From NCBI GenBank assembly GCA_963665815.1, contig OY762463.1:2285949-2349948 (forward strand): a DNA stretch of 64,000 nt, read 5' to 3'. The notes under the pieces were generated by a model. That model saw only the letters and a program-made list of their open reading frames with translations. It had not been told where the DNA came from and ran no database searches. Origin of the DNA: Candidatus Cloacimonadales bacterium (GTDB taxonomy: Bacteria > Cloacimonadota > Cloacimonadia > Cloacimonadales > JAIOQZ01). The number at the start of each line of letters is the position of its first letter. The first letter of the stretch is position 1. A program made the translations under genes and the position numbers. This document shows, one piece after another, positions 13,299 to 59,493 of this stretch.

Positions 13299-14121
13299 TG
13301 TTTATTTTCTCCTTAAGCTCATATAGCATCTCAACGCACTCAAATGGTGCTGAAAAACTTCCCAGATTAACTATATCATTAGGTAATCCATGGAAATCTG
13401 TTCCTCCGGTATAAATCAGATTGTATTTCTCTGTAATGCTTTTGTAAAACTTAATACTATAAGGCAAATGCTTTATGTAATAAACCTCTATCCCCATTAT
13501 ACCCATATCTATCAAATCAAGCACTATAAAATCATCATTCAGTAAAATCGGATGAGCCAGAACAGGTATCCCTTTTGATTTTTTAATCATTGCAATTACT
13601 TCTTTAGGTGAAGGAGTCTGCTTGGGAACAAAACCTTTGCATTTATCTCCGATATATTCATCAAAAGCCTGCTGATAATGTGAAACATATTTTTTTTCCA
13701 GTAAGGCTCTGGCAATATGAGGTCGACCAATAATATTTCTATCCCCGGCAATTCTCATAAGCTGATCCATATCAATAGAGAATTTCCAGAGATCATATAG
13801 TTTTTTAATAATTTTCTCAGCTCTGTAAATCCTCTCGTCTTTGATCAGATTGAGCATAGAGATCAATTCTTCGTTCTGCTCGAAATTATAGCCGAGAATA
13901 TGAACATCTCTGCCATTATAAGTCGCACTAATTTCCACTCCCGGAATAATATGCGGATCATCAGGTTCAAGATTGTCATAAAGATCATTATATGCATCAA
14001 TGTTATCATGATCAGTAATGGACAGGTACTTATAGCCTTTTTTCTTGTACATATTCAGAATTGACCTGACATCAAGTGTTCCATCCGAGTTATCCGAGTG
14101 TATATGTAAATCTACTTTCAT
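13291..14121 (-). CDS. PHP-domain metal-dependent phosphoesterase (TrpH/YciV-like)
   Basis: KVDLHIHSDNSDGTL, SITDHDN, LAHP and GGTDFHG motifs. Confidence 0.85.
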   Translation of the reverse strand: MKVDLHIHSDNSDGTLDVRSILNMYKKKGYKYLSITDHDNIDAYNDLYDNLEPDDPHIIPGVEISATYNGRDVHILGYNFEQNEELISMLNLIKDERIYRAEKIIKKLYDLWKFSIDMDQLMRIAGDRNIIGRPHIARALLEKKYVSHYQQAFDEYIGDKCKGFVPKQTPSPKEVIAMIKKSKGIPVLAHPILLNDDFIVLDLIDMGIMGIEVYYIKHLPYSIKFYKSITEKYNLIYTGGTDFHGLPNDIVNLGSFSAPFECVEMLYELKEKINNE

Positions 14122-14221
14122 GTTTATCCTATGTTAAAAATTAATATATCAGTAAACAAAAAAGTTGAAATAAGGTCAAGAATTTTGTTGATACCGTATA
14201 TACAAAGCTATCTAAAAGTTA

Positions 14222-41184: not shown

Positions 41185-41294
41185 AGGTTTCCTTCTTTGA
41201 AATTCTCCTCTATGAAGAGGAGTACTCCGCAATGCGGAGAGAGGTGTGAGAAAATTATGTTTTATGTAGCCACACCATTCGGAAGGGGAAAATA

Positions 41295-43817
41295 CTATTT
41301 CAACATTATCATTTTGTTTATTAACGATGATTTTTCTGTTTTGACTTTATAGAAATATACTCCGGAACCTACACTTTTGTTGTTTTCGTCTGTCCCGTTC
41401 CATTTAATTGCATGATGTCCACTTTCCTTGTGCTCATTCACCAGTTGTTTTACCTTTTGGCCTTTAATGTTGTAAATTTCAATACAGACATTGCTTTCTT
41501 CAGGAAGACTGTATGATATGGTTGTGGTTGGGTTAAACGGATTAGGGTAGTTCTTACCGGTAAAGGAATAAGCTTCCGGAGCTTCTTCTTCCTTGTAATC
41601 ATGCTCAACATAAGATATTCTGACTCTCTGATGCTCAGGACTCAGTCTGATATCCTTCTCCATATACTTTTTCTGTTCCGCATCATAAACTTGCAGATTC
41701 TCTGAGAAAACCTCTTCACGTTCTCCATACCATTTTACAATATCAATATTGGCATCATAAAGGTCATCTGTAACATATGCGAATACTGCAGCATCCTGAC
41801 CATGAACAACAGAAGCACCAATACATTCACCATTGGCATATACAGCAATTTCCTGAGGAATATCATCCGGAGCGAACTCAAATACAAATGTATTATAATC
41901 AGCTTGTTCAGTATAGTCAAAATAATTCAGATCCGTATCTGCCTCAATATTATTGAAAACAGTAGTAACAACATTTCCACCACCTGTGGATACAAAGCCT
42001 TCATCCCAGATGAATGACGCAGGGTTTTCAGTTTCAACCACTATCATATCACCGTATTGTACGCCATCATAATAACTCTGGTTTGCCACACCTTCCCAGG
42101 TGATAATCATCTGAGAAAACAGACTGTCTCCTATAATTTCTACGTGTTTTTCGTAAGACCAATATTGACCATGAATTCTCTTAAGCTGGTTACCTAAAGT
42201 ACCACCAAAAGCTGATACTGGAGAAGTTGATGATTCCGAACCATAATAGCACACCCAAGTTTCTACTTCACCAAATGGTATGCTTACCGGCTCATCATTT
42301 CTGATACATACTCCATGATAATTATTGATCGCTGCTCCATTATCAATCTGAACCTTATAACCTTTGTACTGCTTGATAATTTCAGATTCATCATCCCAAT
42401 ATCCACCTTCATTTTCTGATGTTGTTACAATCATTGCTTCATTATCATAGTCTGGAGTCTGGTAACTGAATTGATGAACAGTAAATGGGTCGTCATCATC
42501 CATAAACTCAGCAAAGAAACCATCCAACTGGTCATGATTACCAATTGGATCAATAACGGGGAAACCAACCCAGAACCAGTTCTCGGTTTTAGGATCATCA
42601 GTATCAAACTGGTAGTTAAGGCGTTTGTCGTCAAACTGGTATGCTCCAACGTCAACTGTAGTTCCATCAGTTGCAAATACATTACCTATACAATCTGATT
42701 TCCCATCGTTATCCCAGTTTAAAGTATAATCACCGTTATCAGGGTCAGTGAAATAAGGATCAGTAATTTGAGTTAATCCTGCCGGATATGTCACACTTTC
42801 ATCTCCGCTCAAATAAACGGAATTAGTGTATGTTCCTGTTGATGGTGGATATTCAATAATGCTGTTTTCGCAGGTATTTACTCCGCAAATAATTGGTCTC
42901 CAGGCGCTATCATGTAAAAGTGTACTATTTTCAATATTGATTCCATTGGTTAGGAACTGGCAGGGAGTTCCAACATAAGTTTGGATACGATTATCATAAG
43001 TAACTACTTTTTCAAACGTTGTTGTACAACCAGTTCGGCAATTACTCACAATAGAACAAGATGTATTATCAGGAATTACACCTCCAGTGTACAAAGGTCT
43101 GCTGAAACAATCATGAATGTGAACATTCTCAAGAGTGATATCTGCATTACCTACCCCAAAAACAGCTGCACCTGTTGGAGCAGTTCCATTCTCAATACTG
43201 AGATTTATTAGATGAACTTCAGCGTTCTGAACTCCCACAACAGATTTGTAAGCATTTCCTCTTAATATAGTCAGTCCCGGTCCTTCTCCAATTATTGTCA
43301 GATCTTTATTCGTTATTCCGCAATATCCGGTATATGTTCCTGATGGAAGTGTAATTGTATCACCGCTCGAAGCATTGCTTATCAAGGTTTGCAAAGGACT
43401 TACCATGTCGGCCGGAAACTGACTGATATTATCAGTTATTGAACCTACAACATATTCCACATTGAACTCATCTGTTTCATACAAGACAATACTATAATAA
43501 CTGGTTCTTACACTTCCGGTATTATTGGAACCGTTAATGTCGAAATCAAACGTAACACCCCAAAAGTTAAAAGATACACCATCAATTGTTAACCAGTTTG
43601 AGTCTGTTGTAACTTCGAATCTTTGACAGTTGTCCGGGATTCCATTTAAAAAATCATAATCGATTTCAAAAGATGTTGATGTTCCTGTTGTCCAGAATGG
43701 ACCTGTAAAGTAATTTAGTCCTGGAAATTGGTCATAGCGATATGGACTGCTGAATGAAATACTGAATAGTCCAATTGCTAATCCAGTCAAAATAAGTACG
43801 AGATAAATTTTTTTCAT
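41295..43817 (-). CDS. T9SS-sorted large secreted protein (island paralog C; divergent N-terminal two thirds, same C-terminal sorting domain)
   Basis: Start at ATG 43817 (MKKIYLVLILTGLAIGLFS), preceded by GAAGGAGAAAATA. The C-terminal 85 aa are about 90% identical at nucleotide level to paralog B. Confidence 0.8.
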   Translation of the reverse strand: MKKIYLVLILTGLAIGLFSISFSSPYRYDQFPGLNYFTGPFWTTGTSTSFEIDYDFLNGIPDNCQRFEVTTDSNWLTIDGVSFNFWGVTFDFDINGSNNTGSVRTSYYSIVLYETDEFNVEYVVGSITDNISQFPADMVSPLQTLISNASSGDTITLPSGTYTGYCGITNKDLTIIGEGPGLTILRGNAYKSVVGVQNAEVHLINLSIENGTAPTGAAVFGVGNADITLENVHIHDCFSRPLYTGGVIPDNTSCSIVSNCRTGCTTTFEKVVTYDNRIQTYVGTPCQFLTNGINIENSTLLHDSAWRPIICGVNTCENSIIEYPPSTGTYTNSVYLSGDESVTYPAGLTQITDPYFTDPDNGDYTLNWDNDGKSDCIGNVFATDGTTVDVGAYQFDDKRLNYQFDTDDPKTENWFWVGFPVIDPIGNHDQLDGFFAEFMDDDDPFTVHQFSYQTPDYDNEAMIVTTSENEGGYWDDESEIIKQYKGYKVQIDNGAAINNYHGVCIRNDEPVSIPFGEVETWVCYYGSESSTSPVSAFGGTLGNQLKRIHGQYWSYEKHVEIIGDSLFSQMIITWEGVANQSYYDGVQYGDMIVVETENPASFIWDEGFVSTGGGNVVTTVFNNIEADTDLNYFDYTEQADYNTFVFEFAPDDIPQEIAVYANGECIGASVVHGQDAAVFAYVTDDLYDANIDIVKWYGEREEVFSENLQVYDAEQKKYMEKDIRLSPEHQRVRISYVEHDYKEEEAPEAYSFTGKNYPNPFNPTTTISYSLPEESNVCIEIYNIKGQKVKQLVNEHKESGHHAIKWNGTDENNKSVGSGVYFYKVKTEKSSLINKMIMLK

Positions 43818-44289
43818 TATTTTCTCCTTCTGTGGAGACGAGAAAAAACTTGCACACAAATCATAATCCTGCAATGATGTATTCAGGAAATGGGTTTGTT
43901 GCGGTCTTCTTGCCGGAAGCTATTGTTTGCATTCTCATTTCCGTTTATTGATACTATAATATTGTCATTTTGAAATGGAGTATTTAAGAAACCAGATTAC
44001 TACATTAAGAGAACCTTACTCAGGGAAAAATACATACTTATAAAGAAACACAACTACATATCTGCAAGAATTCAAAATATTGTCTAAGAGCTTTTATCTG
44101 TTGAAACTGTAGATGAATTTCATCGAAGCTCTTTTAATTCTACACCGATATAAAACTTTCCATTTGATCAATTGAGAACAAATCTGGGGGAGGCATGTCA
44201 AGGTATTTTTGCGTATTTTGGAATCCCCCCGTTTTTTCTTGAAAATCTGACTTCAAGATAACTGGAAGGATTTTATCAGACATTTCTTA

Positions 44290-44464: not shown

Positions 44465-44753
44465 TTAAATTTATTATACAGTAAAAAAGAGAAAATGCTA
44501 TCATCAATGCAAAACAATCATACTTAGTTCAAAGCTATTACATTGATTCATATTTTCCACTGATTTAATGTTTCAAAACTTTTATTTATAATAAGTTATA
44601 CATACATTGTATTTGGTTTTCGGGGGGATACCTAATTTTTGCGTATTTTCATTTAATTTTTCAGCGGTATGCAAATCAATCTGTTATTGCTCATAACCGA
44701 AATATCAATACGATTTCAATGAAAGTATGTAATCCCTCATTTTAATTATAAGC

Positions 44754-44783
44754 AAAAAACCCCATCGAATTTCTCCGATGGGG
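44754..44783 (-). terminator. Rho-independent terminator of the atp operon
   Basis: On the minus strand: CCCCATCG-GAGAAATT-CGATGGGG followed by T6. Confidence 0.8.
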
Positions 44784-44808
44784 CTTCTTAACAATTTATG
44801 AATTAATG

Positions 44809-46624
<1,816 letters not shown>

Positions 46625-46638
46625 TTATCATTAATTTT

Positions 46639-47487
46639 CTATTGTAAAGCTTCTGCACCGGACGAAATCTCAATAATTTCTGTTGTAATTCCAGCTTGTC
46701 GTACTCTGTTATATTTAAGTGTAAGCGCTTCAATTAACTCTGCTGCGTTATCTGTTGCAGAATCCATAGCAGTCATACGAGCGCCTTGTTCTGCCGCAGA
46801 TGATTCCAGCATGATTCTCCAGATTTCCACATCACCGAACTTATGAGCAAGCTCTTCGATAATAGTCTTTTCATCCGGTTCATACAGATAATCAAGTGTG
46901 CTTATTTCATCAGTTTTAAGTGGAACAATCGGGAATAACTGTTTAACAATCACGTTCTGTTGAATAGCTGATTTGAACTCATTATACAGAACATTCACTT
47001 TTGCATATCCTTTTTCCAGGAATAAGTTAAGCAGGAATGTTCCAATTTCTTTGGAATGAGTAAAATCCATTTCATTGAACAGATACAGATATTTTTCAAT
47101 CACGTTATCAGTTCTTTTCTTGATATGATCAAACCCTTTTTTTCCAAGACAGATAATGTCGGCATCAGGGTTCTTTATTATGTATTCATCAGCTCTTCTT
47201 ATAATGTTTGAGTTAAACGATCCACACAATCCACGGTCAGATGTAACAACTAACAAAGCTTCTTTCCCATCTTTCACTTCGTCGAGTAAAGGATGACCAG
47301 AAAAAGAGTTTTTGTACTTTATACTTGCAAGCATATCATTAAGCATGTTGGCATAAGGTCTTGCTTTCACAATCCTTTCCTGAGCTTTTCTGAGTCTTGC
47401 AGCAGCAACCATTTTCATTGCATTGGTTATTTGCTTAGTACTTTTAACACTATCTATTCTGGTTTTAATCTCTCGTATATTAGCCAT
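46639..47487 (-). CDS. atpG: F1 ATP synthase gamma subunit
   Basis: Characteristic N-terminus IREIKTRIDSVKSTKQITNAMKMVAAARLRKAQ and C-terminal helix ITTEIIEISSGAEAL. Confidence 0.9.
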   Translation of the reverse strand: MANIREIKTRIDSVKSTKQITNAMKMVAAARLRKAQERIVKARPYANMLNDMLASIKYKNSFSGHPLLDEVKDGKEALLVVTSDRGLCGSFNSNIIRRADEYIIKNPDADIICLGKKGFDHIKKRTDNVIEKYLYLFNEMDFTHSKEIGTFLLNLFLEKGYAKVNVLYNEFKSAIQQNVIVKQLFPIVPLKTDEISTLDYLYEPDEKTIIEELAHKFGDVEIWRIMLESSAAEQGARMTAMDSATDNAAELIEALTLKYNRVRQAGITTEIIEISSGAEALQ

Positions 47488-47507: not shown

Positions 47508-49007
47508 TTAAAACTTTTCCAGTACTTTTTCGCAGATTTCTTTCATTTTAGCACGAACTTCATCGGTAATTTTACCTTTAACAAGCTCGTTCATGAAGTC
47601 TTTATGTTGCAGGTCAAGTGTATTGAACAGTTCTTCTTCAACTACCTTGACATTATCTTTTTCAATTTTATCCAGCATTCCGGCATTGGCCATGAAGATA
47701 ATAAAGATCTGTTTAGCTACTGGAAGCGGAGAATATTGTCCCTGTTTGAGAATCTCAATAAGTCTCTCCCCTCTTCTGAGCTGAGCTTGTGTAGCTTTGT
47801 CAAGGTCTGAACCGAACTTGGCAAATGCTTCCAGATCCGCATATTGTGCAAGGTCAAGACGAAGCTGACCAGTTACACCCTTCATTGCTTTAATCTGAGC
47901 GCTACCACCCACACGGGATACAGAGAGACCCGCATTAATAGCAGGACGTACACCGGAGTGGAAAAGTTTGGAACTCAGATAAATCTGACCATCTGTAATA
48001 GAGATCACATTTGTCGGGATATACGCTGTGATGTCATCTGCCTGTGTTTCAATGATAGGCAATGCTGTAAGCGATCCGCCACCACAATCTGCACTGAGTT
48101 TGGAAGCTCTCTCAAGAAGTCTTGAGTGAAGGTAGAAAACGTCTCCCGGATATGCTTCACGTCCCGGAGGTCTTCTGAGAAGGAGTGATAACTCACGATA
48201 AGCAACAGCGTGTTTGGAAAGATCATCATAGATAATCAGAGCATGCTGTCCTTTATCACGGAAGTACTCACCCATAGAGCAACCTGCGTAAGGTGCAAGA
48301 TAGTTAAGTGATGCAGTATCTGAAGCTGATGCGGCAACAATAATTGTATAATCCATTGCACCGTGTTTTTCCAGAGTTTTCACGATTTTAGCAATAGAAG
48401 ATTGTTTCTGACCTACACCAACATACACACAGATAACATCTGTATCTTTCTGGTTTATAATTGTATCGATTGCGATAGCTGTTTTACCGGTTTGACGGTC
48501 ACCGATAATAAGCTCACGCTGTCCTCTTCCGATAGGAATCATGGAGTCGATAGATTTCAGACCTGTTTGAAGAGGTTCCTTCACAGGTTGTCTCTGAATA
48601 ACTCCAAGAGCTTTTCTTTCTACAGGAAGAGTATCTGTTGTTTTAATCTCACCTTTACCGTCAATTGGCTCACCAAGCGGATTAACAACGCGTCCAAGCA
48701 TTGCATCACCAACAGGAACCTGCAGAATTTTTTTGGTTCTTCTTACGATATCCCCTTCTTTAACCTTACGTGTATCACCAAAGATAATACAACCAACATT
48801 ATCTTCTTCAAGGTTAAGAGCCATACCAACAACACCACCAGGAAACTCAATCATTTCTCCAGCCATAACATTGTTCATACCATATACACGGGCAATACCA
48901 TCACCAACCTGCAGAACCTTACCGGTTTCAGCAATGTCAATTTCAAATTTATACTGATTTATTTTCTCTTTCAGAATTGAACTGACTTCATCTGGTTGTA
49001 TTTTCAT
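47508..49007 (-). CDS. atpA: F1 ATP synthase alpha subunit
   Basis: Walker A GDRQTGKT. 499 aa, in the conserved operon position. Confidence 0.95.
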
Positions 49008-49029: not shown

Positions 49030-49563
49030 TTATTTTCTTAATTTCTGGAAACGCATGAGACTGTTAAGAATTGACCCGTCAATGGTCATTGAGTCTGTTT
49101 CGGCAACAAAGCCACCGATCAGCTCCTCATGTATTTCTTTTTTCAGGATTACAGTTCTATGCAGCACAGATTTCAAATACTCGGCAACTTTCGATTCGGA
49201 TTCAGGTGTTAAATCTCTTGCAATTTTGAGATTAACAACAACTTCGTCTCTTCTTTCATGCACCATGTTCTCAATTTCATCAAATATATCAGAAATCAGA
49301 ATAAATCTGTGTTTCTTTATCAGCAGTTGGAACATTGAGTTCCATTTTTCCGTATTAACTGTTCCGACTAATACATCTTTTACCAATTCGAGCCTTTTCT
49401 GCAAAGGTAATAATTGCGTGTGAAGACTCTGCTCAACTTCAGGATATTGCTTTAAAACAGCTTTCAGAGTTTCAATGTCAGTGAGTAAAGATTCCAATTG
49501 AGCAGTCTCAAAGTTTTCAACTATTGCTTTTGCATAACGTTGAGCAATTAATCTTTGTCTCAC
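49030..49563 (-). CDS. atpH: ATP synthase delta (OSCP) subunit
   Basis: 177 aa. N-terminus [10 protein letters not shown] is typical of OSCP. Lies between atpF and atpA. Confidence 0.8.
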
Positions 49564-50042
49564 TTATCGCCTCTTTCTGTTATAAGCTGATTGATGACAC
49601 TATCATCAATTTTTGTGTTAATTTCCTTACCTATCACTTTTGAAGATAACGCTGAAACCATTGCAGCAAGATCTCCCTCAAGACTTCGCATAGCTTTTAC
49701 CTTTTCAGTTTTAAGCTGAGCTTCTGTATCTTGAAGTATCTTTTTCTCCTGGTTTTTAGCCATTTTGATGATATCATTAGCCTGCTCATCAGCATCTCTC
49801 TGAGCTTTCTGCTTCAGTTTTCTGATCTCTTCAGATGAACCTTTCAGTTCTTCTTCTCTTTTATGAACCAGAACTTCAGCTTCTGCTTTTGCTTCTTTGG
49901 CTTCTTTAATATCTTCAGCTATTCGCGTTTGTCTCTCAGCAAGGAAATTCTTTATCGGTTTGTACAATAACTTGTTCAATACAAATAAGATAAGAACAAA
50001 GTTAAGTACTACGATAATAAGTGAATAATCTATACTGATCAT
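49560..50042 (-). CDS. atpF: F0 ATP synthase b subunit
   Basis: Single N-terminal TM (IIVVLNFVLILFVLNKLLYKPI), then a long charged helix. 4-nt overlap with atpH. Confidence 0.85.
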   Translation of the reverse strand: MISIDYSLIIVVLNFVLILFVLNKLLYKPIKNFLAERQTRIAEDIKEAKEAKAEAEVLVHKREEELKGSSEEIRKLKQKAQRDADEQANDIIKMAKNQEKKILQDTEAQLKTEKVKAMRSLEGDLAAMVSALSSKVIGKEINTKIDDSVINQLITERGDK

Positions 50043-50093: not shown

Positions 50094-50348
50094 TTATTTT
50101 GCAAATATCAGAAGAAGTGCAATCACGAGAGAATAGATACCAGTAGACTCGGAAACTGCCTGACCAACAAGCATTGTACGAGTAATAAGACTTGCATTTT
50201 CAGGGGTTCTTGCGATACCTTCACAAGCTTTACCTGCAACAAATCCCTCACCAACTCCTGGTCCTAATGCACCAATTCCCATGCATATTCCCGCACCTAA
50301 AAGTGCAGCTGCCTTTTCAATTCCTTGAGCTAATGTAGCTGAATCCAT
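50094..50348 (-). CDS. atpE: F0 ATP synthase c subunit (single hairpin, 84 aa)
   Basis: ATG at 50348 sits 5 nt after GGAGG; the track start at 50360 is a TTG overlapping that [16 protein letters not shown]...[23 protein letters not shown] is closely similar to Na+-type c subunits. Confidence 0.9.
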
Positions 50349-50388
50349 GAATTCCTCCAAGTTTTTTATTATTGTTTATGTTTTTGAT

Positions 50389-51144
50389 TTATTTTCCAGT
50401 AAAAATTAATAAGAATGATATTACTAGTGAATAAATAGCCGTTGATTCTGAAACTGCTGCTCCGAGAAACATTGTTCTCATGATTGTTGAACGCTCTTCG
50501 GGAAATCTGCCAAGCATATCGCAGGCTCTTCCCGCAACGTATCCAATACCGGATCCGGGACCTAGTGTTCCGAGTCCGATGGATAATCCTGCACCGACAA
50601 AAGCAATAGATGTTGAGATAATCTTAGCTAACTCAATACCTGCAGGTTGATTTGGTGTTGAATACACTAAAAGAAGTGATACAACAAGTGCAAATATTGA
50701 TGAAGTCTGAGCAAGTGCCTGTCCAACAAGCATATTGGTCATAATTGCGTTTCCGTGTTTTGGCATTCTACCAATTGATTTACATGCCTGTCCACCGACG
50801 TATCCGGCTCCCATTGCAGGTCCTACTGCTCCAATTCCCACTGCGAGACCGGCAGCCAGTAATGCTGCAGCTTTGAACCATCCGCCTTCCGGTGTATCAA
50901 AACCACCGAAAAGGAGAAGCAATGCAATTACAAGAGAGAAGATACCTCCGGTACCGGTAGCAGCCTGTCCAATCAGCATTGATCTGAATATTGAGTCCTG
51001 TGCCTTAGGCTGTTTCATTAATGCATAAGCAGCTTCATCTGCAATCACACCTGAACCTATACCGGTTGTAACAGATGCAATACCAACAGATAAACCGGCT
51101 CCCAAAAAACCAGCCATTCTAATTATTGAAGTTGTAATTTCCAT
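50389..51144 (-). CDS. Triplicated F0 c-subunit (three fused hairpins, six TM helices, 251 aa)
   Basis: Three internal repeats, each alignable to the adjacent atpE product. The carboxylate position reads G64, Q146 and E233. GGAGA RBS. Lies between atpB and atpE. Confidence 0.85.
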   Translation of the reverse strand: MEITTSIIRMAGFLGAGLSVGIASVTTGIGSGVIADEAAYALMKQPKAQDSIFRSMLIGQAATGTGGIFSLVIALLLLFGGFDTPEGGWFKAAALLAAGLAVGIGAVGPAMGAGYVGGQACKSIGRMPKHGNAIMTNMLVGQALAQTSSIFALVVSLLLVYSTPNQPAGIELAKIISTSIAFVGAGLSIGLGTLGPGSGIGYVAGRACDMLGRFPEERSTIMRTMFLGAAVSESTAIYSLVISFLLIFTGK

Positions 51145-51159
51145 ATATTCTCCGACAAA

Positions 51160-52095
51160 TTATTCTTCGTTAATTTCAACACCGATATAAGTCAGTGCCA
51201 GCATTGTGAAAACAAATGCCTGTACGGTTCCCACGAATACACCAAAAAACAGTCCAAGTCCAACAGGCAATATAATGAATTTTACAAGTGATGAAACCAC
51301 AAGTATAATGATTGCTCCACCAAGGATGTTACCGAAAAGACGGAAAGCGATTGAAACTGCTTTAGCAAGCTCTCCAACAAGATTTAATGGGAATAAAAAC
51401 CACAATGGTTCTGCATATCCTTTCAAGTAAGCCCCAAAACCTTTTACCTTGATTGCCATGAAATGAACGACTCCAACCGCAAGAATACCCATTCCAAGAG
51501 GAACGTTCAGGTTTCTTGTAGGTTCCATAAATCCAGGAATAGGAACAAGACCAATCATGTTACAGCTCCAGATGAAGATGAAAATCGTCACCACATAAGG
51601 TGTGAAATGAAGTCTGTCTTTTCCAAGGGTCTCACCTACAAAGTCTTCGAAGAAAGTATAAATCATTTCGAACAGTATCTGTGGTTTAGACGGTCTGTCA
51701 AAAAGACTTTTCTTCACAAGCACTGCTATTAATAATAGTATAATATCAAGAATAAGCAGCATTTTCAGAAGCTTGTAAGTACCTATCGGAGTTTTGGTAA
51801 ATTTCGCAAAGAAATCATAAAGATGTTCGCTGCCGAGTATGACCTTTTCGTGACCGTGCTCAATAACGTATTCATCTGTCTGAAAATCCTCCGAAATTCT
51901 CTGTTGAAGGTCGAATTCTGTTTGTTGATGTGTGATAACAAACTTGCCTTTTTCGCCGAACTTGCCTTCTTTATCTACACCAATAACCAGTTCCTTGGTA
52001 AAGTTACCGGAAAACCATACCAGTGCAAACTCAATGACAAGAAAAATCAGCATCAGAGTCAGCAAGCTGTTCTTTTTCTTTGATTTGTTAGCCAT
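51160..52095 (-). CDS. atpB: F0 ATP synthase a subunit
   Basis: AFRLFGNILGG contains the essential Arg. 311 aa. Overlaps the atpI stop. Confidence 0.9.
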   Translation of the reverse strand: MANKSKKKNSLLTLMLIFLVIEFALVWFSGNFTKELVIGVDKEGKFGEKGKFVITHQQTEFDLQQRISEDFQTDEYVIEHGHEKVILGSEHLYDFFAKFTKTPIGTYKLLKMLLILDIILLLIAVLVKKSLFDRPSKPQILFEMIYTFFEDFVGETLGKDRLHFTPYVVTIFIFIWSCNMIGLVPIPGFMEPTRNLNVPLGMGILAVGVVHFMAIKVKGFGAYLKGYAEPLWFLFPLNLVGELAKAVSIAFRLFGNILGGAIIILVVSSLVKFIILPVGLGLFFGVFVGTVQAFVFTMLALTYIGVEINEE

Positions 52096-52483
52096 TTGAT
52101 CCTCTATAGTATTTATTATTTTTAAACTGACGGTAAAACTCGTAGATGTATATAATTATCTGTGAAGATAAAAGCCCGGCTCCAAAAACCATAATATTGG
52201 GTTTCATAAATTTAACGATTATTGCCGAGTACACTGCAAGAAACAGAAAGCGAAGAAAATACCCTTTTGATGATCTTTTCTTCGTACCTGTAATTCCAAG
52301 CTGCAGGCTTCTATATACATCGAAAGCTAACCAAAGGAAAAAAATCAGGCTACCCAGACTACCAGTAATCCAGGCTAACGACATTTTAATATCGAATGGT
52401 ATTGCTATTGTCGCAACTATGATTGTCAAGAAATTAATTCCCGCAATTGTAATAATGTATTTTTTGTTTCGCGTTGAAAGCAT
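52088..52483 (-). CDS. atpI: ATP synthase protein I-like small membrane protein
   Basis: 131-aa protein with 4 hydrophobic helices as the first gene of the operon. The call is by position and topology only. Confidence 0.55.
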   Translation of the reverse strand: MLSTRNKKYIITIAGINFLTIIVATIAIPFDIKMSLAWITGSLGSLIFFLWLAFDVYRSLQLGITGTKKRSSKGYFLRFLFLAVYSAIIVKFMKPNIMVFGAGLLSSQIIIYIYEFYRQFKNNKYYRGSNG

Positions 52484-52553
52484 TGTTTATCTATCCTGTA
52501 TATTCGTGTTATCTCATTCTATGTTCTTTCTAAATCCATAATATATAATGAAG

Positions 52554-53126
52554 TTATCTATTTTGTTTGTCAAACTTTATTAATATTGCAGGATCAATTT
52601 TTTCACCTGACTCTATTATCTCAAAGTGAAGATGAGGATCTGTACTCTTTCCAGTATTGCCTACAAGCGCAATTACGTCATCAATATACACATACTCTTT
52701 TAACTTTACAAACACTTTTGACGCATGTGCATATTTTGTTTTATATCCGTTCAAGTGATCAATTACAAGATAATTTCCATAAATTTCATCATAACCTTTA
52801 TCAACAACAACCCCCACTGCAGATGGAACTATCTTTGTTCCTGTAACCGCAGCTAAATCAATTCCTTTATGTATATCGGAGAATCGCTGACTGACGACAT
52901 ACTTCCCGTAAACAGGAACCTGACGGGGAATACTGTCACTATAGTCATTATAACGTTTCTTACCTGATCCGGATTTATTCGATACTGTACTTACCTTAAA
53001 ATTTTCCAACTCTCCTGTAAGTTGAACAATCTCTGCTTTCTGTTTGCCGACAAGGCTGAACTGAAAATAGACTGCCCCAATCAGTAATACAATAATTAAG
53101 AGAAGTCCTGCCAGTATAACTTTCAT
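52554..53126 (-). CDS. M23-family metallopeptidase (membrane-anchored)
   Basis: HKGIDLAA and GNTGKSTDPHLHFEI motifs. N-terminal TM. Confidence 0.85.
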   Translation of the reverse strand: MKVILAGLLLIIVLLIGAVYFQFSLVGKQKAEIVQLTGELENFKVSTVSNKSGSGKKRYNDYSDSIPRQVPVYGKYVVSQRFSDIHKGIDLAAVTGTKIVPSAVGVVVDKGYDEIYGNYLVIDHLNGYKTKYAHASKVFVKLKEYVYIDDVIALVGNTGKSTDPHLHFEIIESGEKIDPAILIKFDKQNR

Positions 53127-53127
53127 A

Positions 53128-53976
53128 TCACTTCAAAAGTTTTTTCAGAAGCTGTATTCTCTCGTCTTCATTCTTATAGAAGAATGATATTTTGCCTTTG
53201 CTGTTCTTGTCAGCAATTTTTACTTTGAATCCAAAGTTCTTCTTAAGTTGAAGTTCCATCTCACCTAGAACAACTTTTTTCCCTTCAGGTACTTTAGGAA
53301 GCTCAGTTTTGTCAGGAGATGCCAGAAATTCTTTTGCTGCTTTCTCGGTTTTCCTTACAGACAGCTCATTCTTGATAATAAAATCTGAAAATTCAACCTG
53401 ATTCTCTTCCGGTAACGTAAGTATTGCTCTGGCATGACCTGATGATAGTTTCTGCCCTCTGACAAGCTCCCTGACCTCAGGATGTAGCTTTAAAAGCCTG
53501 AGAGAATTAGTTACAGTCGCTCTGTCTTTACCAATGATTTCCGATATCTGGGCATGAGTTAAAGAGAATTCCTCATGAAGCTGCATATATGCCTCTGCCT
53601 CATCCATAGAGTTCAAATTCTCTCGCTGTATGTTCTCAATAATTGCAAATTGCAAAAGTTGTTTCTTAGATACACTTCTTATTATCACAGGAATCTCACT
53701 GAAGCCTGCCAGCTTGGAAGCTTCCAGTCTTCGTTCTCCCGCAATCAGTTCATATTGTGAATTCTCACACTTAGAAACGATTATCGGCTGAATAAGCCCG
53801 TTTTCTTTTAATGACTGTGCCAGTTCCTGAAGTTTTACCTGATCGAAAACTTTTCTCGGCTGATATCTGTTGGGTCTTATTTTACTTACATCAATTGTTG
53901 TAATCCCGGTTGTTCTGTCCGTGGATTCCGGCCCCGATTTTATCAGAGCATCAAGTCCTCTTCCTAATCTACTCAT
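53128..53976 (-). CDS. parB: Chromosome partitioning protein ParB/Spo0J
   Basis: IQPIIV and LIAGERRLEASKLAG (ParB box), followed by an HTH region. ATGA overlap with parA. Confidence 0.9.
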   Translation of the reverse strand: MSRLGRGLDALIKSGPESTDRTTGITTIDVSKIRPNRYQPRKVFDQVKLQELAQSLKENGLIQPIIVSKCENSQYELIAGERRLEASKLAGFSEIPVIIRSVSKKQLLQFAIIENIQRENLNSMDEAEAYMQLHEEFSLTHAQISEIIGKDRATVTNSLRLLKLHPEVRELVRGQKLSSGHARAILTLPEENQVEFSDFIIKNELSVRKTEKAAKEFLASPDKTELPKVPEGKKVVLGEMELQLKKNFGFKVKIADKNSKGKISFFYKNEDERIQLLKKLLK

Positions 53977-54731
53977 CTTTTTATCACTTCCGCCGCAAAT
54001 TGCAAATAATTGCGCGCGCCTTTGGATGTTATATCATAATGAAAAATTGATTTACCAAAACTCGGTGCTTCACTGAGCTTTACATTTCTATGTATAATTG
54101 TGTTAAATACTTTTTCCCTGAAATAGCGTCTTACTTCTTTTGCTACCTGATTTGAGAGATTTAGTCTTTTATCATACATTGTAAGCAGAACTCCCAGAAT
54201 ATTCAGGTCAGGATTAAGATTTTTCTGAATAAGATTTACAGTATTTAAGAGCTGACTTACTCCCTCAAGAGCAAAGTACTCACACTGAATAGGTATAAGT
54301 ACATCTGTACACGCAGTAAGAGCATTAACCGTAAGTAACCCGAGAGAAGGAGGACAATCAATGATAACATAATCATATTTGTCATTAATGCTCTCTAATG
54401 CTTTTTTTAGCTTATGTTCCCTTGAGAATTCTTTTACAAGTTCTATTTCTGCACCTGTAAGGTCTATATTGCTTGGCGCTAAGTCAAGATGTTCTATATA
54501 TGAAGGAACAATAACGTCCTCAATGTTAACTTTTTTAACCAGTGCATCATAAATATGTATCTTCAGGTTAGAAGTATCTACACCCAACCCGCTAGATGCA
54601 TTACCCTGAGGATCAAAATCAATCAACAGGGTTCGTTTTTCATGAATTCCCAGAGCTGCTGCAAGATTGACTGAGGTAGTAGTTTTACCAACTCCCCCCT
54701 TTTGATTCACAACAGTTATGATTTTTTTCAT
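53973..54731 (-). CDS. parA: Chromosome partitioning ATPase ParA/Soj
   Basis: Deviant Walker A NQKGGVGKTTTSVNLA. IIDCPPSLG. Confidence 0.9.
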   Translation of the reverse strand: MKKIITVVNQKGGVGKTTTSVNLAAALGIHEKRTLLIDFDPQGNASSGLGVDTSNLKIHIYDALVKKVNIEDVIVPSYIEHLDLAPSNIDLTGAEIELVKEFSREHKLKKALESINDKYDYVIIDCPPSLGLLTVNALTACTDVLIPIQCEYFALEGVSQLLNTVNLIQKNLNPDLNILGVLLTMYDKRLNLSNQVAKEVRRYFREKVFNTIIHRNVKLSEAPSFGKSIFHYDITSKGARNYLQFAAEVIKR

Positions 54732-54732
54732 T

Positions 54733-55344
54733 CTATTTAAATACCTTTATAAGTTTTCTGGTTCCGATAGCCGGATGGCTGACATCAATAATCTTTTTCT
54801 TCTTGAAAATGTCAGTATCATCATGATTCTCTGATTTATATAAAATCATGCAACCATTGTTTTTAAGTATCCTCATAAGTACTTTTTTGAACTGTGGAAG
54901 GATTCTTACGGATCGACATACAATAACATCAAAAAGACCTTCCCATTCATCAACAGGACACTCTTCTAATCTGTACGAAACAGGAAAACATGAATCTAAG
55001 TCAAGATTTTTGACAATTTTTTTCAGGCATTCTATCTTCTTCTTTCTGGAATCAAGCAATACAACTTCAGAGTCGGGATACATAATACTCAATGGTATAC
55101 CCGGAAGCCCACCGCCAGTACCGAAATCAAGAATAGTTTTTCCTGCAAAATTATAATGATCTACAGAGAGCAGAGAATCCATTATATGAATTGTCCATAT
55201 TTTATCAGGATTTGTTTTACGTGAAACAAGGTTAACCTTCTGATTTTCCTCAAGCAGTAATTCATGATATCTCTCTATGAGAGAATATTTTCGTTCGTCA
55301 GAAAATCTTTCTGAATAGAATTCAGTAAATACTTTTTTAGACAT
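54733..55344 (-). CDS. rsmG: 16S rRNA (guanine527-N7)-methyltransferase RsmG (GidB)
   Basis: ILDFGTGGGLPGIPL SAM-binding motif. Classic rsmG-parA-parB order. Confidence 0.85.
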   Translation of the reverse strand: MSKKVFTEFYSERFSDERKYSLIERYHELLLEENQKVNLVSRKTNPDKIWTIHIMDSLLSVDHYNFAGKTILDFGTGGGLPGIPLSIMYPDSEVVLLDSRKKKIECLKKIVKNLDLDSCFPVSYRLEECPVDEWEGLFDVIVCRSVRILPQFKKVLMRILKNNGCMILYKSENHDDTDIFKKKKIIDVSHPAIGTRKLIKVFK

Positions 55345-55671
55345 TTTTACTCCTGAAAATATTTCAGAAAACTACAGTTGAAATGTCAATCAGAAAATAT
55401 ACCAGAAATTTTAATATCTTCTACTATGCTTTACAAGTCAACAATCCAAAAAGGATATTTTATATTTCCCTTACATGTTAATTAATTCATTTTTTTTGAT
55501 TAGATAATTGAAATTATACCCTATACTCTGTTAGCCTTATTCGGCAATTTTCAACATCAGTAAATATAAGTGAAATCTGGGGCACTGAATAATACACTGT
55601 CAGTTCAAATATTTTCCATGAAATATTTGACTTAAAAATAAATATACTATCTTATTGGTAAAGAGGTGACT

Positions 55672-58600
55672 ATGAGATACATTAATATTTTTCTAATTTT
55701 TATTTTCTGTTTTCAGCTGCATGCAGTTGTACAGGAATCCGCATCATTAAAAGACTTTCTATATGGTGAAACCGATCAAACCGCTTATGACAACTTTCAA
55801 AGTCATATTATTGAAGGAGTTGATCATAACATTAACGACCACGCTCCTTACGATCCGCATACCGATGGATTCGGAACATTCACTGTCCCAACGGATACCG
55901 ATACTCTGAACTGGGCACAACTTATTCAGTTTTTTCTGGATGAAAACCTGCAATCTGCCGATTCATTGATTCAGGAATTAAATCTACCTTATGAAATTGT
56001 TGAATTCAATGATACCGATGTAAACAGAAACTACATTATGTTAAGAGAGCTTGTTGATACAACATATGTTGATACTAACAGCACAGATGGTTATATTGAA
56101 CGTGGCAGCTTTAACAAAGGCTGGGGACTATACATATATAACCCAAACAGTTTTTATGATAACATAATTACTACTCCTCACCCAAGCGATGACTTTATCA
56201 CAATACCGGTTTCCTGCTATGCATTCCAGGAACTCAATGCAAAATACTGGCTCATAAGCAATGTCAGCCGTGAAGCCGCTCACAGTGGAACAAACTTTAC
56301 AAATGGTACATCACTATCTGATCCAACCAGAAATTCCTGCCACCCATACAATACTACTTACAAAGCAATTGCCAATAAAGTAAGACAAGAGACAGGCGAA
56401 AGAGAATTCTGTGTACAAATTCACTCGTATGACTGGGATAATACCGGTCCCCATAGACCTATAGAACTGTCAATGGGACCTTTTAATGATAAAACATCCC
56501 TTCCAACCAGAGACTTCAGCAGTCAGCATCGAGATCTGGTTAATTTTACAGATGAGATAGTTGTTCCTGCAAATTCGGTGGGAATTCATGACCAGATCAG
56601 AGTTGAAGACTACTATTGCATAAATAATGGAACAGAACCAATCTATTTCTATGGAGAAAATCAGGACTATGCAATAGATAACCAGATATGGCTTGAAGGG
56701 TATCATTATAATGTTCAGATGAGATATACTAATGACAATTATAATGATTATGAAGTATTCGACCCGTTTTTCCATATTGAAATGCACGAACTTCCTTATG
56801 TATATGCGACTAATGATTCGACCTACAGATGGTTTTATGAACAGACCGGTCCGTCATTTAAATCTAGATTCGATAAAATGTTCGTTTTTTATGCCCCGTG
56901 GGTGGATGCCTTAGATGAAGCTATGAGATACTATAACAGGAGAAATGACTATCAGACACCTGATGCTCCCCAACTGACCCAGCTGTCAACTCTGCCTGAA
57001 ATCTCCTGGACACGTGCTGATTGTTATGATTTTGCAACATATCGTATCTTCTACTCAGACAGCACAATAACAGATCCGCCGGACAGTACGGTAAGCTATA
57101 TTGACAGGAACAGCATGGAAACTTTAGCCCAGCCTACATTCAACAGTTATACTGATGAAGTAGTTTCCCTTATAGGTAAATATGTCAGAGTTCAAACTGT
57201 AGACCAGAACGGGCATGAATCTGACCTGTCCAATGAAATCATTGTAGTATCAAGCAATGTAAATATCAGTCAATTCAGTATTACTCCCGGAGACAATGGT
57301 GTAACAGTATCATGGACAACAACAAGCCAGACAAACAACTCAGGATTTCTGTTGAAACGAACAGAATATCCATTTGATCAGACTCAGACTCTTTTCAGCT
57401 ATGTTTCTGATCTGGCAATGCTGGGATACAATCAGGCAGGAACACGAAATTATTCAGTAACTGACAATTCTGTTGTAGATGGCGGAATTTATAAGTATTC
57501 ATTGTACTCTCACAATAGTCAGTTGAATGCTGATGTTCCCCTGTATCTGAATCAAGAGCTAAATATTGTACCTTATTATAATCTGGTATTAGATCGAAAC
57601 GGAGTAACGGAAGAAAGTACATTCGGAATGAATTTCTTTGCTTCGGATGGTTACTCAGATGATTTTGATGAGACTACATCCCTGTACAACAGGTCTCAAT
57701 ATGTAGTCTTTACAAGTCCTCCTATGCCAAGATCTTATGAAACAATGATTCATGAAGCATTCGATCCAAATGAAGTATGGAAAGAGTGGCCTGTTAAAAT
57801 AAAGAATCAGTCAGGAGAAAACGGTGAAGTATACATGGATCCTTTACCTGCATCAATGCATCAGGGAGGAAGGTTATTCATGACAGACGGTACAAACTGT
57901 ATCAATCTTCTAACTGATACTTTAGCAGTGCCTAACGGCATCAGTGGGGACTATTACACAATGTACTGGGGTAATATTCAGCCAAATATCAGTCAGAACA
58001 TGGATATTACTAAATACTACCATGCTGGCGATACACTCACATTGAACTGGAGTTCTGACAGAGAATATATGATTAAAAAACATTATCTGACAGTTATGGA
58101 CCATTCCGGCACACAAACGCTGGTAGATTCAATCTATTCTACTACTAACAGTTATGAGATTATTCCGGATGGAACATACTCCGACTCTGTTTTCTTCACT
58201 CTTCATACAATACTGTACGACGATGATGAAATTTCAATTGATTTCCCAGTTATTCATGTTTATAATAATACACAGAGCTACGCTCTTGAAGAAGGTATTC
58301 AGCTACTGAATGTACACAACCTGAACTCAAATATTAATATAAATACAATGCTGAGCGATCTTGTTCATTTTTACAGTTATGATGACAGTTCTTTCACCCA
58401 GCATATTACAATGACCTCTGGGACCTATGCAGTAGAATCTGATCAGACCTATCAATTTTCTGAGCAAACTCCTGCATACCCGAATTCCACAAACTCTGTT
58501 TTGCTTTCACAAGGATGGAACCTGATAGGATCTCCATTCCCTCATGATTATCCATTATCTGCAGTCAAAATCATTCAGAATAATCAGGAGACAACTTATA

Positions 58601-59493
58601 ATCAGGCTGTATTAGATGGAATCATTGAGGGTTATGGGCTTGACAATTCCGGATTTATAACTGAAGAAAGAGTTATTGAAAATGGTAAAAGCCTGTGGAT
58701 TTACAGCTTTGAAGATTCTCTTGAAATGGAATTTACGACTTATCCTGTCAGAGATTCACTGGAGTTTCAATATCCGGAATACCAGTTTGTTAATGTTGTA
58801 GTTTCTGATATGACTGAAGAGAATCAGGATTTATTCACTACAGGTCACTACGAATATGGTTTTGAAGAGTTTGATATAGGCTTGGACAGAATGTGTCCTC
58901 CAGATAACTTCAAGCAGATAAAAGCTTACACATATGACGATGATTATTGTTATTTCAGGAATCTGAAGCCTTACATCATCGACATAAACCTTGATACAGA
59001 ATACAATTTGAGAATACATTCTCCAGCCGGAGACTCAGTTAAACTGTTCATTGATGATGCTAATTACAGAGTTGAGTATTCATTCTATGTTTTCGTAAAC
59101 GGACAACAGAGAAGATTGAGATACGGGCAGGATCTGGTTCTCTATAATGAAACAGGTACGCTGGATCTGATTTTCAAAATACAGGATTATGTAACATCCA
59201 ACGATGTGAACACTTATGAATTTGTTCCACTCGCAAACTATCCGAATCCTTTCAATCCAGAGACAACTCTTAATTTCTCAATCCATAAACCTGAACATGT
59301 TGAACTTAAAGTTTATAACTTAAAAGGTCAGCTTGTAAAAACCCTCGTTGATGAAAAAATGGAAGCAGGTATTCATAAAGTAGTATGGAAAGGCAGAAAC
59401 AACAAAGACAGACAAGTCGCATCCGGAGTTTACTTCGTTAAACTGAAAGCCAGCACAAATAATGATATCAGGAAAATGATATTATTGAAGTAG
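55672..59493 (+). CDS. Very large T9SS-sorted secreted protein (1273 aa)
   Basis: ATG at 55672 sits 6 nt after AAAGAGG. Signal peptide MRYINIFLIFIFCFQLHA. C-terminal NYPNPFNPETTLNFSI...GVYFVKLKAS...MILLK is a T9SS C-terminal domain. The N-terminal region has weak zinc-amidohydrolase-like motifs (TPHP, DPTRN, VQIHSYD). Confidence 0.8.
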   Translation: MRYINIFLIFIFCFQLHAVVQESASLKDFLYGETDQTAYDNFQSHIIEGVDHNINDHAPYDPHTDGFGTFTVPTDTDTLNWAQLIQFFLDENLQSADSLIQELNLPYEIVEFNDTDVNRNYIMLRELVDTTYVDTNSTDGYIERGSFNKGWGLYIYNPNSFYDNIITTPHPSDDFITIPVSCYAFQELNAKYWLISNVSREAAHSGTNFTNGTSLSDPTRNSCHPYNTTYKAIANKVRQETGEREFCVQIHSYDWDNTGPHRPIELSMGPFNDKTSLPTRDFSSQHRDLVNFTDEIVVPANSVGIHDQIRVEDYYCINNGTEPIYFYGENQDYAIDNQIWLEGYHYNVQMRYTNDNYNDYEVFDPFFHIEMHELPYVYATNDSTYRWFYEQTGPSFKSRFDKMFVFYAPWVDALDEAMRYYNRRNDYQTPDAPQLTQLSTLPEISWTRADCYDFATYRIFYSDSTITDPPDSTVSYIDRNSMETLAQPTFNSYTDEVVSLIGKYVRVQTVDQNGHESDLSNEIIVVSSNVNISQFSITPGDNGVTVSWTTTSQTNNSGFLLKRTEYPFDQTQTLFSYVSDLAMLGYNQAGTRNYSVTDNSVVDGGIYKYSLYSHNSQLNADVPLYLNQELNIVPYYNLVLDRNGVTEESTFGMNFFASDGYSDDFDETTSLYNRSQYVVFTSPPMPRSYETMIHEAFDPNEVWKEWPVKIKNQSGENGEVYMDPLPASMHQGGRLFMTDGTNCINLLTDTLAVPNGISGDYYTMYWGNIQPNISQNMDITKYYHAGDTLTLNWSSDREYMIKKHYLTVMDHSGTQTLVDSIYSTTNSYEIIPDGTYSDSVFFTLHTILYDDDEISIDFPVIHVYNNTQSYALEEGIQLLNVHNLNSNININTMLSDLVHFYSYDDSSFTQHITMTSGTYAVESDQTYQFSEQTPAYPNSTNSVLLSQGWNLIGSPFPHDYPLSAVKIIQNNQETTYNQAVLDGIIEGYGLDNSGFITEERVIENGKSLWIYSFEDSLEMEFTTYPVRDSLEFQYPEYQFVNVVVSDMTEENQDLFTTGHYEYGFEEFDIGLDRMCPPDNFKQIKAYTYDDDYCYFRNLKPYIIDINLDTEYNLRIHSPAGDSVKLFIDDANYRVEYSFYVFVNGQQRRLRYGQDLVLYNETGTLDLIFKIQDYVTSNDVNTYEFVPLANYPNPFNPETTLNFSIHKPEHVELKVYNLKGQLVKTLVDEKMEAGIHKVVWKGRNNKDRQVASGVYFVKLKASTNNDIRKMILLK

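Follow-up and report, generated by a model that had tools for sequence, protein, structure and literature searches.

The DNA analysed here is a 64,000-nucleotide stretch (the window) from a Candidatus Cloacimonadales bacterium (assembly GCA_963665815.1, contig OY762463.1, positions 2,285,949 to 2,349,948 of the forward strand). It carries an entire F-type ATP synthase operon on the minus strand, with the gene order I-a-3xc-c-b-delta-alpha-gamma-beta-epsilon (Table 1). The gene of interest lies between those for subunit a and the ordinary c subunit; its product consists of three consecutive c hairpins and is called triple c below. A six-frame scan finds exactly four c hairpins in the window, namely the three of triple c and the one of the normal c. 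Pfam searches bear out the statement of a preliminary description of this DNA that the remaining genes form a canonical F-type operon.

Table 1. Genes, hairpins and putative signals of the ATP synthase operon; positions are counted from the first letter of the window.
Feature	Position	Strand	Length and key residues	Evidence and remarks
Promoter-like site	52545..52573	minus	TTGACA-17-CATTAT	Upstream of atpI; weak candidate only
atpI	52088..52483	minus	131 aa	Pfam ATP-synt_I, 25.0 bits, E = 2.5e-5 (cut-off 25.1 bits); same position in L002
atpB, Fo subunit a	51160..52095	minus	311 aa; RLFGN arginine motif	Pfam ATP-synt_A, residues 112-304; NCBIfam F0F1 subunit A
Triple-hairpin c gene	50389..51144	minus	251 aa + stop	Pfam, alignment, AlphaFold2, NCBIfam, six-frame scan
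Hairpin 1	50908..51132	minus	aa 5-79; S31 at Gln32 position, G64 at Glu65 position, T65-G66-x-x-F69	Dead
Hairpin 2	50662..50892	minus	aa 85-161; A113, Q146, T147-S148-x-x-F151	Dead
Hairpin 3	50398..50631	minus	aa 172-249; E233 carboxylate, I200 at Gln32 position, S234-T235-x-x-Y238	
Normal single-hairpin c	50094..50348	minus	84 aa; two-carboxylate Na+ motif	Pfam; alignment to 3ZK1 and 1YCE
atpF, subunit b	49560..50042	minus	160 aa	Pfam ATP-synt_B
atpH, subunit delta	49030..49563	minus	177 aa	Pfam OSCP
atpA, subunit alpha	47508..49007	minus	499 aa	Pfam
atpG, subunit gamma	46639..47487	minus	282 aa	Pfam
atpD, subunit beta	45212..46609	minus	465 aa	Pfam
atpC, subunit epsilon	44809..45219	minus	136 aa	Pfam
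Intrinsic-terminator-like hairpin	44753..44790	minus	17 pairs + T run	Operon end

The preliminary description had read the triple c frame as three c hairpins, each alignable to the 84-residue c encoded immediately downstream. Both points hold: the frame lies on the minus strand, all of the peptides quoted from it are present, and the two-helix ATP-synt_C hairpin (PF00137) expected of an F-type c subunit occurs three times (140 bits in total, E = 2e-41). In a MAFFT alignment with the normal c, hairpins 1, 2 and 3 show 40, 47 and 55% identity, respectively; over the match columns of a hidden Markov model (HMM) the values are 43, 50 and 59%. Among themselves the hairpins are 35-37% identical. When the thirds are aligned separately, the carboxylate column holds Glu in the normal c and, as had been reported, G64, Q146 and E233 in triple c (codons 50955..50953, 50709..50707 and 50448..50446). 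Hairpins 1 and 2 have no acidic residue at this position; the key carboxylate of F-type c subunits is found in hairpin 3 alone. A prediction of structure and topology had also been proposed, and the AlphaFold2 model, built from a family alignment of 57 sequences, has six long helices arranged as three hairpins (predicted local distance difference test 94.4, predicted template modelling score 0.88). The modelled unit is curved and well packed.

If translated from ATG 50348, with a GGAGG Shine-Dalgarno sequence 6 nucleotides upstream, the normal c has 84 residues. The longest open reading frame call begins at TTG 50360 instead. Aligned to the c subunits of Fusobacterium nucleatum (3ZK1) and Ilyobacter tartaricus (1YCE), the protein has the complete F. 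nucleatum-type motif, with equivalents of E32, E65, S66, T67 and Y70.

Triple c has more than 100 homologs of 240-257 residues, all full length and from independent assemblies, comprising metagenomes and metagenome-assembled genomes (MAGs). In a second Cloacimonadales MAG (locus L001) the protein is 98% identical to that of the window. Between the two genes there are 31 synonymous differences and 4 non-synonymous ones (omega 0.04), of which 10 synonymous and 0 non-synonymous fall in dead hairpin 2. Omega is approximately 0.1 against loci L002 and L003 (approximately 0.13 for L002). The triple c gene, dead hairpins included, is under purifying selection.

It is hardly conceivable that triple c is an artefact or a misannotation, whether a collapsed set of tandem c genes, a frameshifted pseudogene or an acquired archaeal A-type triplicated K subunit. 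Tandem c genes exist (atpE1-3 of Acetobacterium woodii) and methanogens have triplicated K subunits (PMC2359735). However, a collapsed or chimeric assembly is excluded because the hairpins diverged anciently and the homologs are independent of one another; the mostly synonymous divergence of the L001 copy and the lack of stops in the frame also rule out a pseudogene. The GC content of the gene agrees with that of the rest of the operon. No Met or other start codon with a Shine-Dalgarno sequence is found at the linkers, which rules out separate single-hairpin products made from internal starts. The best NCBIfam model is F0F1 subunit C (NF009999, 157 bits against a cut-off of 124); the V-type K model NF004913 reaches 63 bits against a cut-off of 211, and every V-type K model stays below its cut-off. 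A horizontally acquired V/A-type K subunit is ruled out by these scores and by the F-type operon context.

The Na+ site of a c-ring is shared by two hairpins. Gln/Glu32 and Glu65 come from one hairpin; the adjacent hairpin supplies the carbonyl of Val63 and Ser66, with Thr67/Tyr70 in support (PMC3692424, PMC2359735). For multi-hairpin subunits, the ProAD rule takes the S/T-S/T/Q-x-x-Y part from the previous hairpin, and a carboxylate site without any Na+ ligand is scored as H+-specific (PMC11738941 supplement). A. woodii c1 obeys the neighbour rule: its hairpin 1, which stands before the dead site, has Phe, and its hairpin 2, which stands before a live one, has Tyr. The same tendency can be read from the best 150 representatives of an exhaustive homology search (described below) after they are split into hairpins. 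Among representatives with up to five hairpins, Tyr70 is retained in 116 of 144 last hairpins and in 13 of 327 internal ones; it is retained in 2 of the 169 hairpins that precede a dead site.

Judged by their residues at these positions, hairpins 1 (S31, G64) and 2 (A113, Q146) of the window protein are ion-blind. Position 32 of the E233 site is I200, an Ile in 108 of the 113 members of the family alignment (the window protein and 112 homologs), and the residues that it receives from hairpin 2 are T147, S148 and F151, the last being Phe in all 113 members. Set against the canonical Na+ site of the I. tartaricus and F. nucleatum type, it lacks both Gln/Glu32 and Tyr70. Because I200 replaces Gln32 and F151 replaces Tyr, it does not qualify as a canonical Na+ site; it could be H+-type, a weak Na+ site or inert. 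The earlier claim that only hairpin 3 keeps a site is therefore right for the carboxylate and wrong for a canonical Na+ site, and 20 of the 113 members have Gln in place of this carboxylate. Kaim et al. reportedly found in 1997 that a Q32I mutant of the Propionigenium modestum c subunit lost Na+ coupling and kept H+ coupling.

The S-T-x-x-Y face of hairpin 3 is nearly invariant: S234 is present in 113 members, T235 in 111 and Y238 in 112. This S234-T235-x-x-Y238 face is predicted to complete the Na+ site of the next subunit. It is kept even in the 52 of 113 members in which hairpin 1 is dead.

One consequence of the E233 chemistry could be a mixed-ion rotor, that is, a heteromeric ring whose Na+ sites are joined by a working site of the H+ type at E233, so that Na+ and H+ are both carried in each turn. 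E233 is retained in 93 of 113 members, its surroundings are more hydrophobic (I200, F151), and the H+-specific scoring of ProAD is accompanied by published two-hairpin c subunits in which one site is for H+ and the other for Na+ (PMC11738941 supplement). We nevertheless regard this arrangement as unlikely: at least eight Glu to Gln replacements suggest that the carboxylate is not essential, and the Ser/Thr ligands and the backbone carbonyl persist, so weak Na+ binding is possible.

The homologs of triple c that bear an organism name all belong to Candidatus Cloacimonadota/Cloacimonetes; their annotation is 'ATP synthase F0 subunit C' and nothing more. The preliminary description had suggested a search of related genomes for the arrangement atpB-(3x c)-atpE; it is present at L001-L003 and L005. 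A scan of contigs by exact peptide patterns gave three loci. Synteny extends over a-3xc-c-b at L001, L002, L003 and L005, and over atpI-a-3xc-c-b-delta-alpha at L002, L003 and L005. The normal c is near-identical between the window, L002 and L003.

The number of carboxylates in triple c varies between lineages. In the 113-member alignment, the carboxylate position of hairpin 1 is E in 61 members, Q in 41 and G in 11; that of hairpin 2 is Q in 112 and E in one; that of hairpin 3 is E in 93 and Q in 20. The most common combinations over hairpins 1-2-3 are E-Q-E (49 members), Q-Q-E (37) and E-Q-Q (11). Rarer ones are G-Q-E (6, including the window), G-Q-Q (5), Q-Q-Q (4) and E-E-E (1). Nine members, with either Q-Q-Q or G-Q-Q, have no carboxylate in any hairpin; one of these, at L002 (8001..8753) in a Cloacimonadota MAG, is a Q-Q-Q protein that is full length and intact beside a near-unchanged normal c. 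Going by this alignment, triple c is a Cloacimonadota-wide family with 0-3 carboxylates and not a one-off.

Ancestral states were counted on a neighbour-joining tree. The Gln of hairpin 2 is ancestral and fixed at the root; the key residue of hairpin 1 has changed at least seven times, and hairpin 3 has undergone at least eight independent Glu to Gln changes. By these counts, the carboxylates of hairpins 1 and 3 have been lost repeatedly across Cloacimonadota. This on/off switching looks like lineage-specific tuning of the gear ratio. What does not vary in triple c is its glycine packing motif, together with the linkers and the S-T-x-x-Y face.

Repeated loss also bears on whether triple c is part of the working rotor at all. 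It could instead have an accessory role, as an assembly scaffold, as a template for ring size, or as a brake that stalls the ring at the a-interface and limits wasteful ATP hydrolysis. The carboxylates of hairpins 1 and 3 are evidently dispensable, given their recurrent loss and the nine members without any; packing motif, linkers and S-T-x-x-Y face are what stays invariant, and relatives show runs of 2-4 ion-blind hairpins. An accessory role is nonetheless rather unlikely. Among characterised homologs the nearest is A. woodii c1, which is a stoichiometric part of the rotor in an enzyme that synthesises ATP (PMC9171764). A scaffold has no need of conserved ion ligands facing its neighbour's site, and the brake version is without direct support.

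The best explanation, to which we give a probability of about 0.6, is that triple c is a c-ring subunit of a Na+-coupled F1Fo ATP synthase, sharing a heteromeric ring with the normal c so that fewer ions are carried in each turn. Triple c would co-assemble with the adjacent single-hairpin c into one ring, as A. woodii c1 does with c2/c3. Hairpins 1 and 2 (G64, Q146) would pass through the ring as ion-blind positions; hairpin 3 would keep E233 in a degraded site that is low-affinity or H+-type at best. With S234-T235-x-x-Y238 intact in hairpin 3, the two-carboxylate Na+ site of the normal c that follows would be complete. A normal c would obtain all parts of its site behind hairpin 3 just as it does behind another c, and the neighbours of the block would be undamaged, which would make for an economical design.

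Each block would add three hairpins of circumference and zero or one translocating site; fewer ions would be carried per turn, and hence per three ATP. For n normal c subunits and m blocks, the hairpins of a ring would number n + 3m; its canonical Na+ sites would number n, and its extra sites m at most. As an illustration, take m = 1 and 11 hairpins, an assumed size that is typical of known Na+ rings. Such a ring would carry 8-9 ions in each turn, compared with 11 for c11; this is approximately 2.7-3.0 ions per ATP, compared with 3.7.

A heteromeric ring is favoured because selection has kept carboxylate-free orthologs intact next to a conserved normal c, and because c1 of A. woodii, the nearest relative to have been characterised, is a stoichiometric part of its ring. 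A ring made solely of carboxylate-free subunits could not transport ions, which disfavours a homomeric ring. Retention of S-T-x-x-Y where hairpin 1 is dead (52 of 113 members) indicates that the usual follower of hairpin 3 has a live canonical site, as the normal c does. Taken together, the comparative evidence favours a hybrid ring.

The same observations weigh on the idea of an alternative rotor, in which triple c forms a homo-oligomeric ring of its own that replaces the normal c-ring under some conditions and acts as a V-ATPase-like, ATP-driven ion pump with a low ratio; four copies, for example, would give 12 hairpins and 4 carboxylates. One operon does hold two c genes, the AlphaFold2 unit appears curved and well packed, and the nearest folds after A. 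woodii c1 are those of V-type rings built solely of multi-hairpin, reduced-site subunits. Even so, such a rotor is distinctly unlikely. The intact and constrained Q-Q-Q and G-Q-Q orthologs could not make a working homomeric ring, and the S-T-x-x-Y face is conserved although the hairpin 1 that would be its neighbour is so often dead. The sole carboxylate site is short of Na+ ligands, whereas the normal c is a complete Na+ binder. Lastly, a sequence scan between the two c genes found neither a terminator nor a convincing promoter or regulatory signal, and promoter-like sites across the operon region are no more frequent than in shuffled sequence; separate transcription of the two c genes is ruled out on these grounds.

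Several points weigh against a heteromeric ring as set out above. The protein is known from sequence alone, and co-assembly, stoichiometry, ring size and the ion specificity of E233 are inferred. We know of no experimentally validated F-type precedent for two consecutive dead hairpins, or for the three to four seen in relatives. In modelling of the A. woodii rotor, a growing number of ion-blind positions is said to make ATP synthesis harder. The handedness of the neighbour rule was taken from the published rule and from residue statistics, not from coordinates. The S-T-x-x-Y of hairpin 3 could be conserved for purely structural reasons, and relaxed constraint on a near-blank block would produce the same pattern of switching. 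E233 may bind Na+ after all; reshuffling of ligands is known in multi-hairpin subunits (PMC2359735).

The physiology of the phylum agrees with a hybrid Na+ rotor. Cloacimonadota are Rnf-dependent anaerobic fermenters or syntrophs with a predicted Na+ F-type ATP synthase (PMC8542988, PMC12590816), and multiple atpE copies or hybrid rotors have been linked to anaerobes of the Rnf-dependent type (PMC13343851, PMC7911925).

Multi-hairpin c-like proteins are not confined to this family. An exhaustive HMMER search gave 1573 matches at E <= 0.001, including c-like proteins of approximately 160, 245, 320, 405-435, 524, 631, 968 and 1139 residues. Many of the proteins with 2-5 hairpins have a live first hairpin, Gln in the inner hairpins and Tyr in the last one, as in E-Q-Q-Q and E-Q-Q-Q-Q. 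P0115 (405 residues, five hairpins; L004, 8001..9218) is encoded in an operon AtpZ-atpI-a-5xc-c-b-b'; P0320 (322 residues, four hairpins; L006, 7001..7969), from the Thermodesulfobacteriota MAG GCA_034189905.1, is encoded in the order AtpZ-atpI-4xc-a-c-b-b'. F-type c models give the best scores for P0115, P0320 and P0165; by their model scores, the proteins of 8 and 13 hairpins belong to V-type K. Going by these comparisons, the window protein belongs to a broad set of multi-hairpin F-type c subunits that are depleted in sites and paired with a normal c.

The operons at L004 and L006 are Fo-only, with a normal 82-residue c adjoining, and their multi-hairpin proteins have mostly Gln at the carboxylate position; at L006 the multi-hairpin gene sits before atpB rather than after it. 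A different type is represented by P0165 (968 residues), P0134 (434 residues) and P0179 (524 residues), which have 12, 5 and 7 hairpins, respectively, with Glu in every one. P0165 and P0134 score best on F-type c and not on V-type K models, and P0165 could be an entire F-type ring in one chain, analogous to the K subunit of Methanopyrus. P0185-P0279 (approximately 315-321 residues) are a large and diverse four-hairpin c-like family with a recurrent E-Q-E-D/E pattern; they fall into dozens of 50%-identity clusters, are approximately 30% identical to the window protein, and have weak best scores to F-type c.

A broader proposal is tentative, and we hold it to be slightly short of an even chance. 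F-type synthases throughout Cloacimonadota would have heteromeric rings with a three-hairpin block of 0-2 working sites, and Glu to Gln/Gly switching would tune the ion/ATP ratio finely. Four- and five-hairpin analogues would occur in Thermodesulfobacteriota and other anaerobes, the a-interface would be traversed by 2-4 consecutive blanks, and Na+ and H+-type sites would perhaps be mixed.

The genes in and around the operon have further peculiarities. The Fo a subunit of the window is unusually long at 311 residues; its relatives have 303 (L002, 7087..7998) and 337 (L005, 5927..6940). The N-terminal region of approximately 110 residues that precedes the ATP-synt_A match contains a hydrophobic segment followed by a charged region. 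The a subunits beside the four- and five-hairpin c genes (L006 and L004) are of ordinary length, at 223-224 residues. At L005, the gamma and beta genes of the F-type operon are separated by an inserted gene for a 585-residue protein with a Big_2 domain (12418..14175).

Just upstream of atpI, at 52554..55344 on the minus strand, are genes for an M23 peptidase, parB, parA and rsmG (gidB); a gene set of this type is often near the chromosomal origin. At L002, a bactofilin-like frame and an AtpZ-like frame of 79 residues lie between the peptidase gene and atpI; neither is present in the window. Very large secreted proteins flank the window operon and are encoded at 38830..41232 (minus), 41295..43874 (minus) and 55666..59493 (plus). 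The products of the latter two have C-terminal FlgD_ig / Por_Secre_tail sorting domains of type IX secretion, and the last 80 or so residues of the 38830..41232 product are near-identical to those of the 41295..43874 product.

The ion/ATP ratio fixes the smallest quantum of energy that can be conserved, and is central to fermenters and syntrophs that live near the thermodynamic limit. If a three-hairpin block with 0-2 live sites is at work throughout the phylum, with the four- and five-hairpin relatives beside it, depletion of sites in F-type rotors would be a strategy both widespread and evolvable, and the ratio could be tuned stepwise at constant ring diameter. Fo motors would then pass several ion-blind hairpins in a row, which current models of torque generation do not readily predict; runs of blanks are also unexpected under the argument that V-type c subunits preclude synthesis. 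These organisms would offer a natural experiment on the number of blank positions with which an Fo motor can still synthesise ATP. For them, genome-based models of bioenergetics would be wrong wherever each c hairpin is counted as one ion, or any protein annotated 'ATP synthase F0 subunit C' is taken for a standard c.

The two-hairpin c1 of a hybrid rotor and the multi-hairpin c subunits of archaea are already known; the three-hairpin, largely ion-blind F-type block is apparently new. The preliminary description was aware of no six-helix c subunit in an F-type enzyme, and the searchable literature yielded none, nor any description of a bacterial F-type three-hairpin c or of the site-depleted multi-hairpin F-type set; an earlier mention, for example in Brandt & Muller 2015 or Matthies et al. 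2014, is possible. The Cloacimonadota genome papers searched, including PMC8542988 and PMC12590816, do not mention triple c. The ProAD paper treats multi-hairpin c/K subunits generically and gives logos for the one- and two-hairpin forms only (PMC11738941). Sequence and fold searches of the PDB found no six-helix c or K subunit.

A. woodii c1, the precedent named in the preliminary description, matches best among PDB entries in sequence as well as in fold (4BEM chain J, E = 2e-27; for the AlphaFold2 model, target TM-score 0.81 and root-mean-square deviation 1.5 A). To our knowledge the A. woodii rotor, with one blank position in eleven, is the only characterised hybrid F-type rotor. Its c-ring contains nine c2/3 and one c1 (PDB 4BEM), and the enzyme synthesises ATP (PMC9171764). 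Clostridium aceticum has the same c1/c2 pair (PMC7911925). Like A. woodii c1, triple c is an F-type multi-hairpin c encoded after atpB and before a single-hairpin Na+ c in an operon that contains atpI. It shares with c1 the Gln for Glu in a dead hairpin (Q146 here), the Phe for Tyr70 in the hairpin before a dead site, and the T/S-T-x-x-Y of the last hairpin. The two systems have further traits in common: fewer sites than hairpins, a partner c with a complete Na+ motif, and a host that is an Rnf-dependent anaerobe.

Triple c differs from c1 in having three hairpins rather than two (c1 is approximately 18 kDa with four transmembrane helices), and two dead hairpins rather than one; some of its relatives have three. 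Hairpin 1 is live in c1 and dead in the window protein (G64), and the additional third hairpin holds its carboxylate in a non-canonical site (I200, F151). In contrast to A. woodii c2/c3, which have Gln32, the normal c of the window has the two-carboxylate Glu32 motif. The hybrid ring of A. woodii is a solved structure (4BEM); the counterpart proposed for the window is a prediction. Matched hairpins of triple c and c1 are 47 and 43% identical, compared with 36 and 39% crosswise. Positional orthology of hairpins is clear among triple-hairpin proteins only (P0141, P0144); it is weak for c1, and hairpin-by-hairpin identity found none with the four- and five-hairpin proteins. A c1-like gene and a normal c could plausibly have fused to give triple c, since hairpin 3 and the normal c share 59% identity.

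The triplicated K subunits of archaeal A1Ao enzymes, such as that of Methanocaldococcus jannaschii, resemble triple c in having three linked hairpins, six transmembrane helices and a carboxylate that is lost in part of the repeats. Archaeal c/K subunits have 1, 2, 3 or 13 hairpins, the last number in Methanopyrus kandleri (PMC2359735, PMC9171764). The M. jannaschii type has an A/V-type sequence, an A1Ao operon and a homomeric ring; the window protein is F-type by sequence and operon, and stands beside a normal c. V-type proteolipids (NtpK of Enterococcus hirae, eukaryotic Vo c/c'') match its fold over two hairpins with a TM-score of approximately 0.8, and are duplicated hairpins with one carboxylate per two. 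They are only 17-26% identical to triple c, belong to another type of operon and form rings solely of multi-hairpin subunits. The F. nucleatum c subunit (3ZK1) shares E32 and E65, S66, T67 and Y70 with the normal c of the window, and hairpin 1 of the E-Q-E relatives bears the same E/E pair; unlike the rotor proposed here, the F. nucleatum ring is a homomeric c11 of single hairpins.

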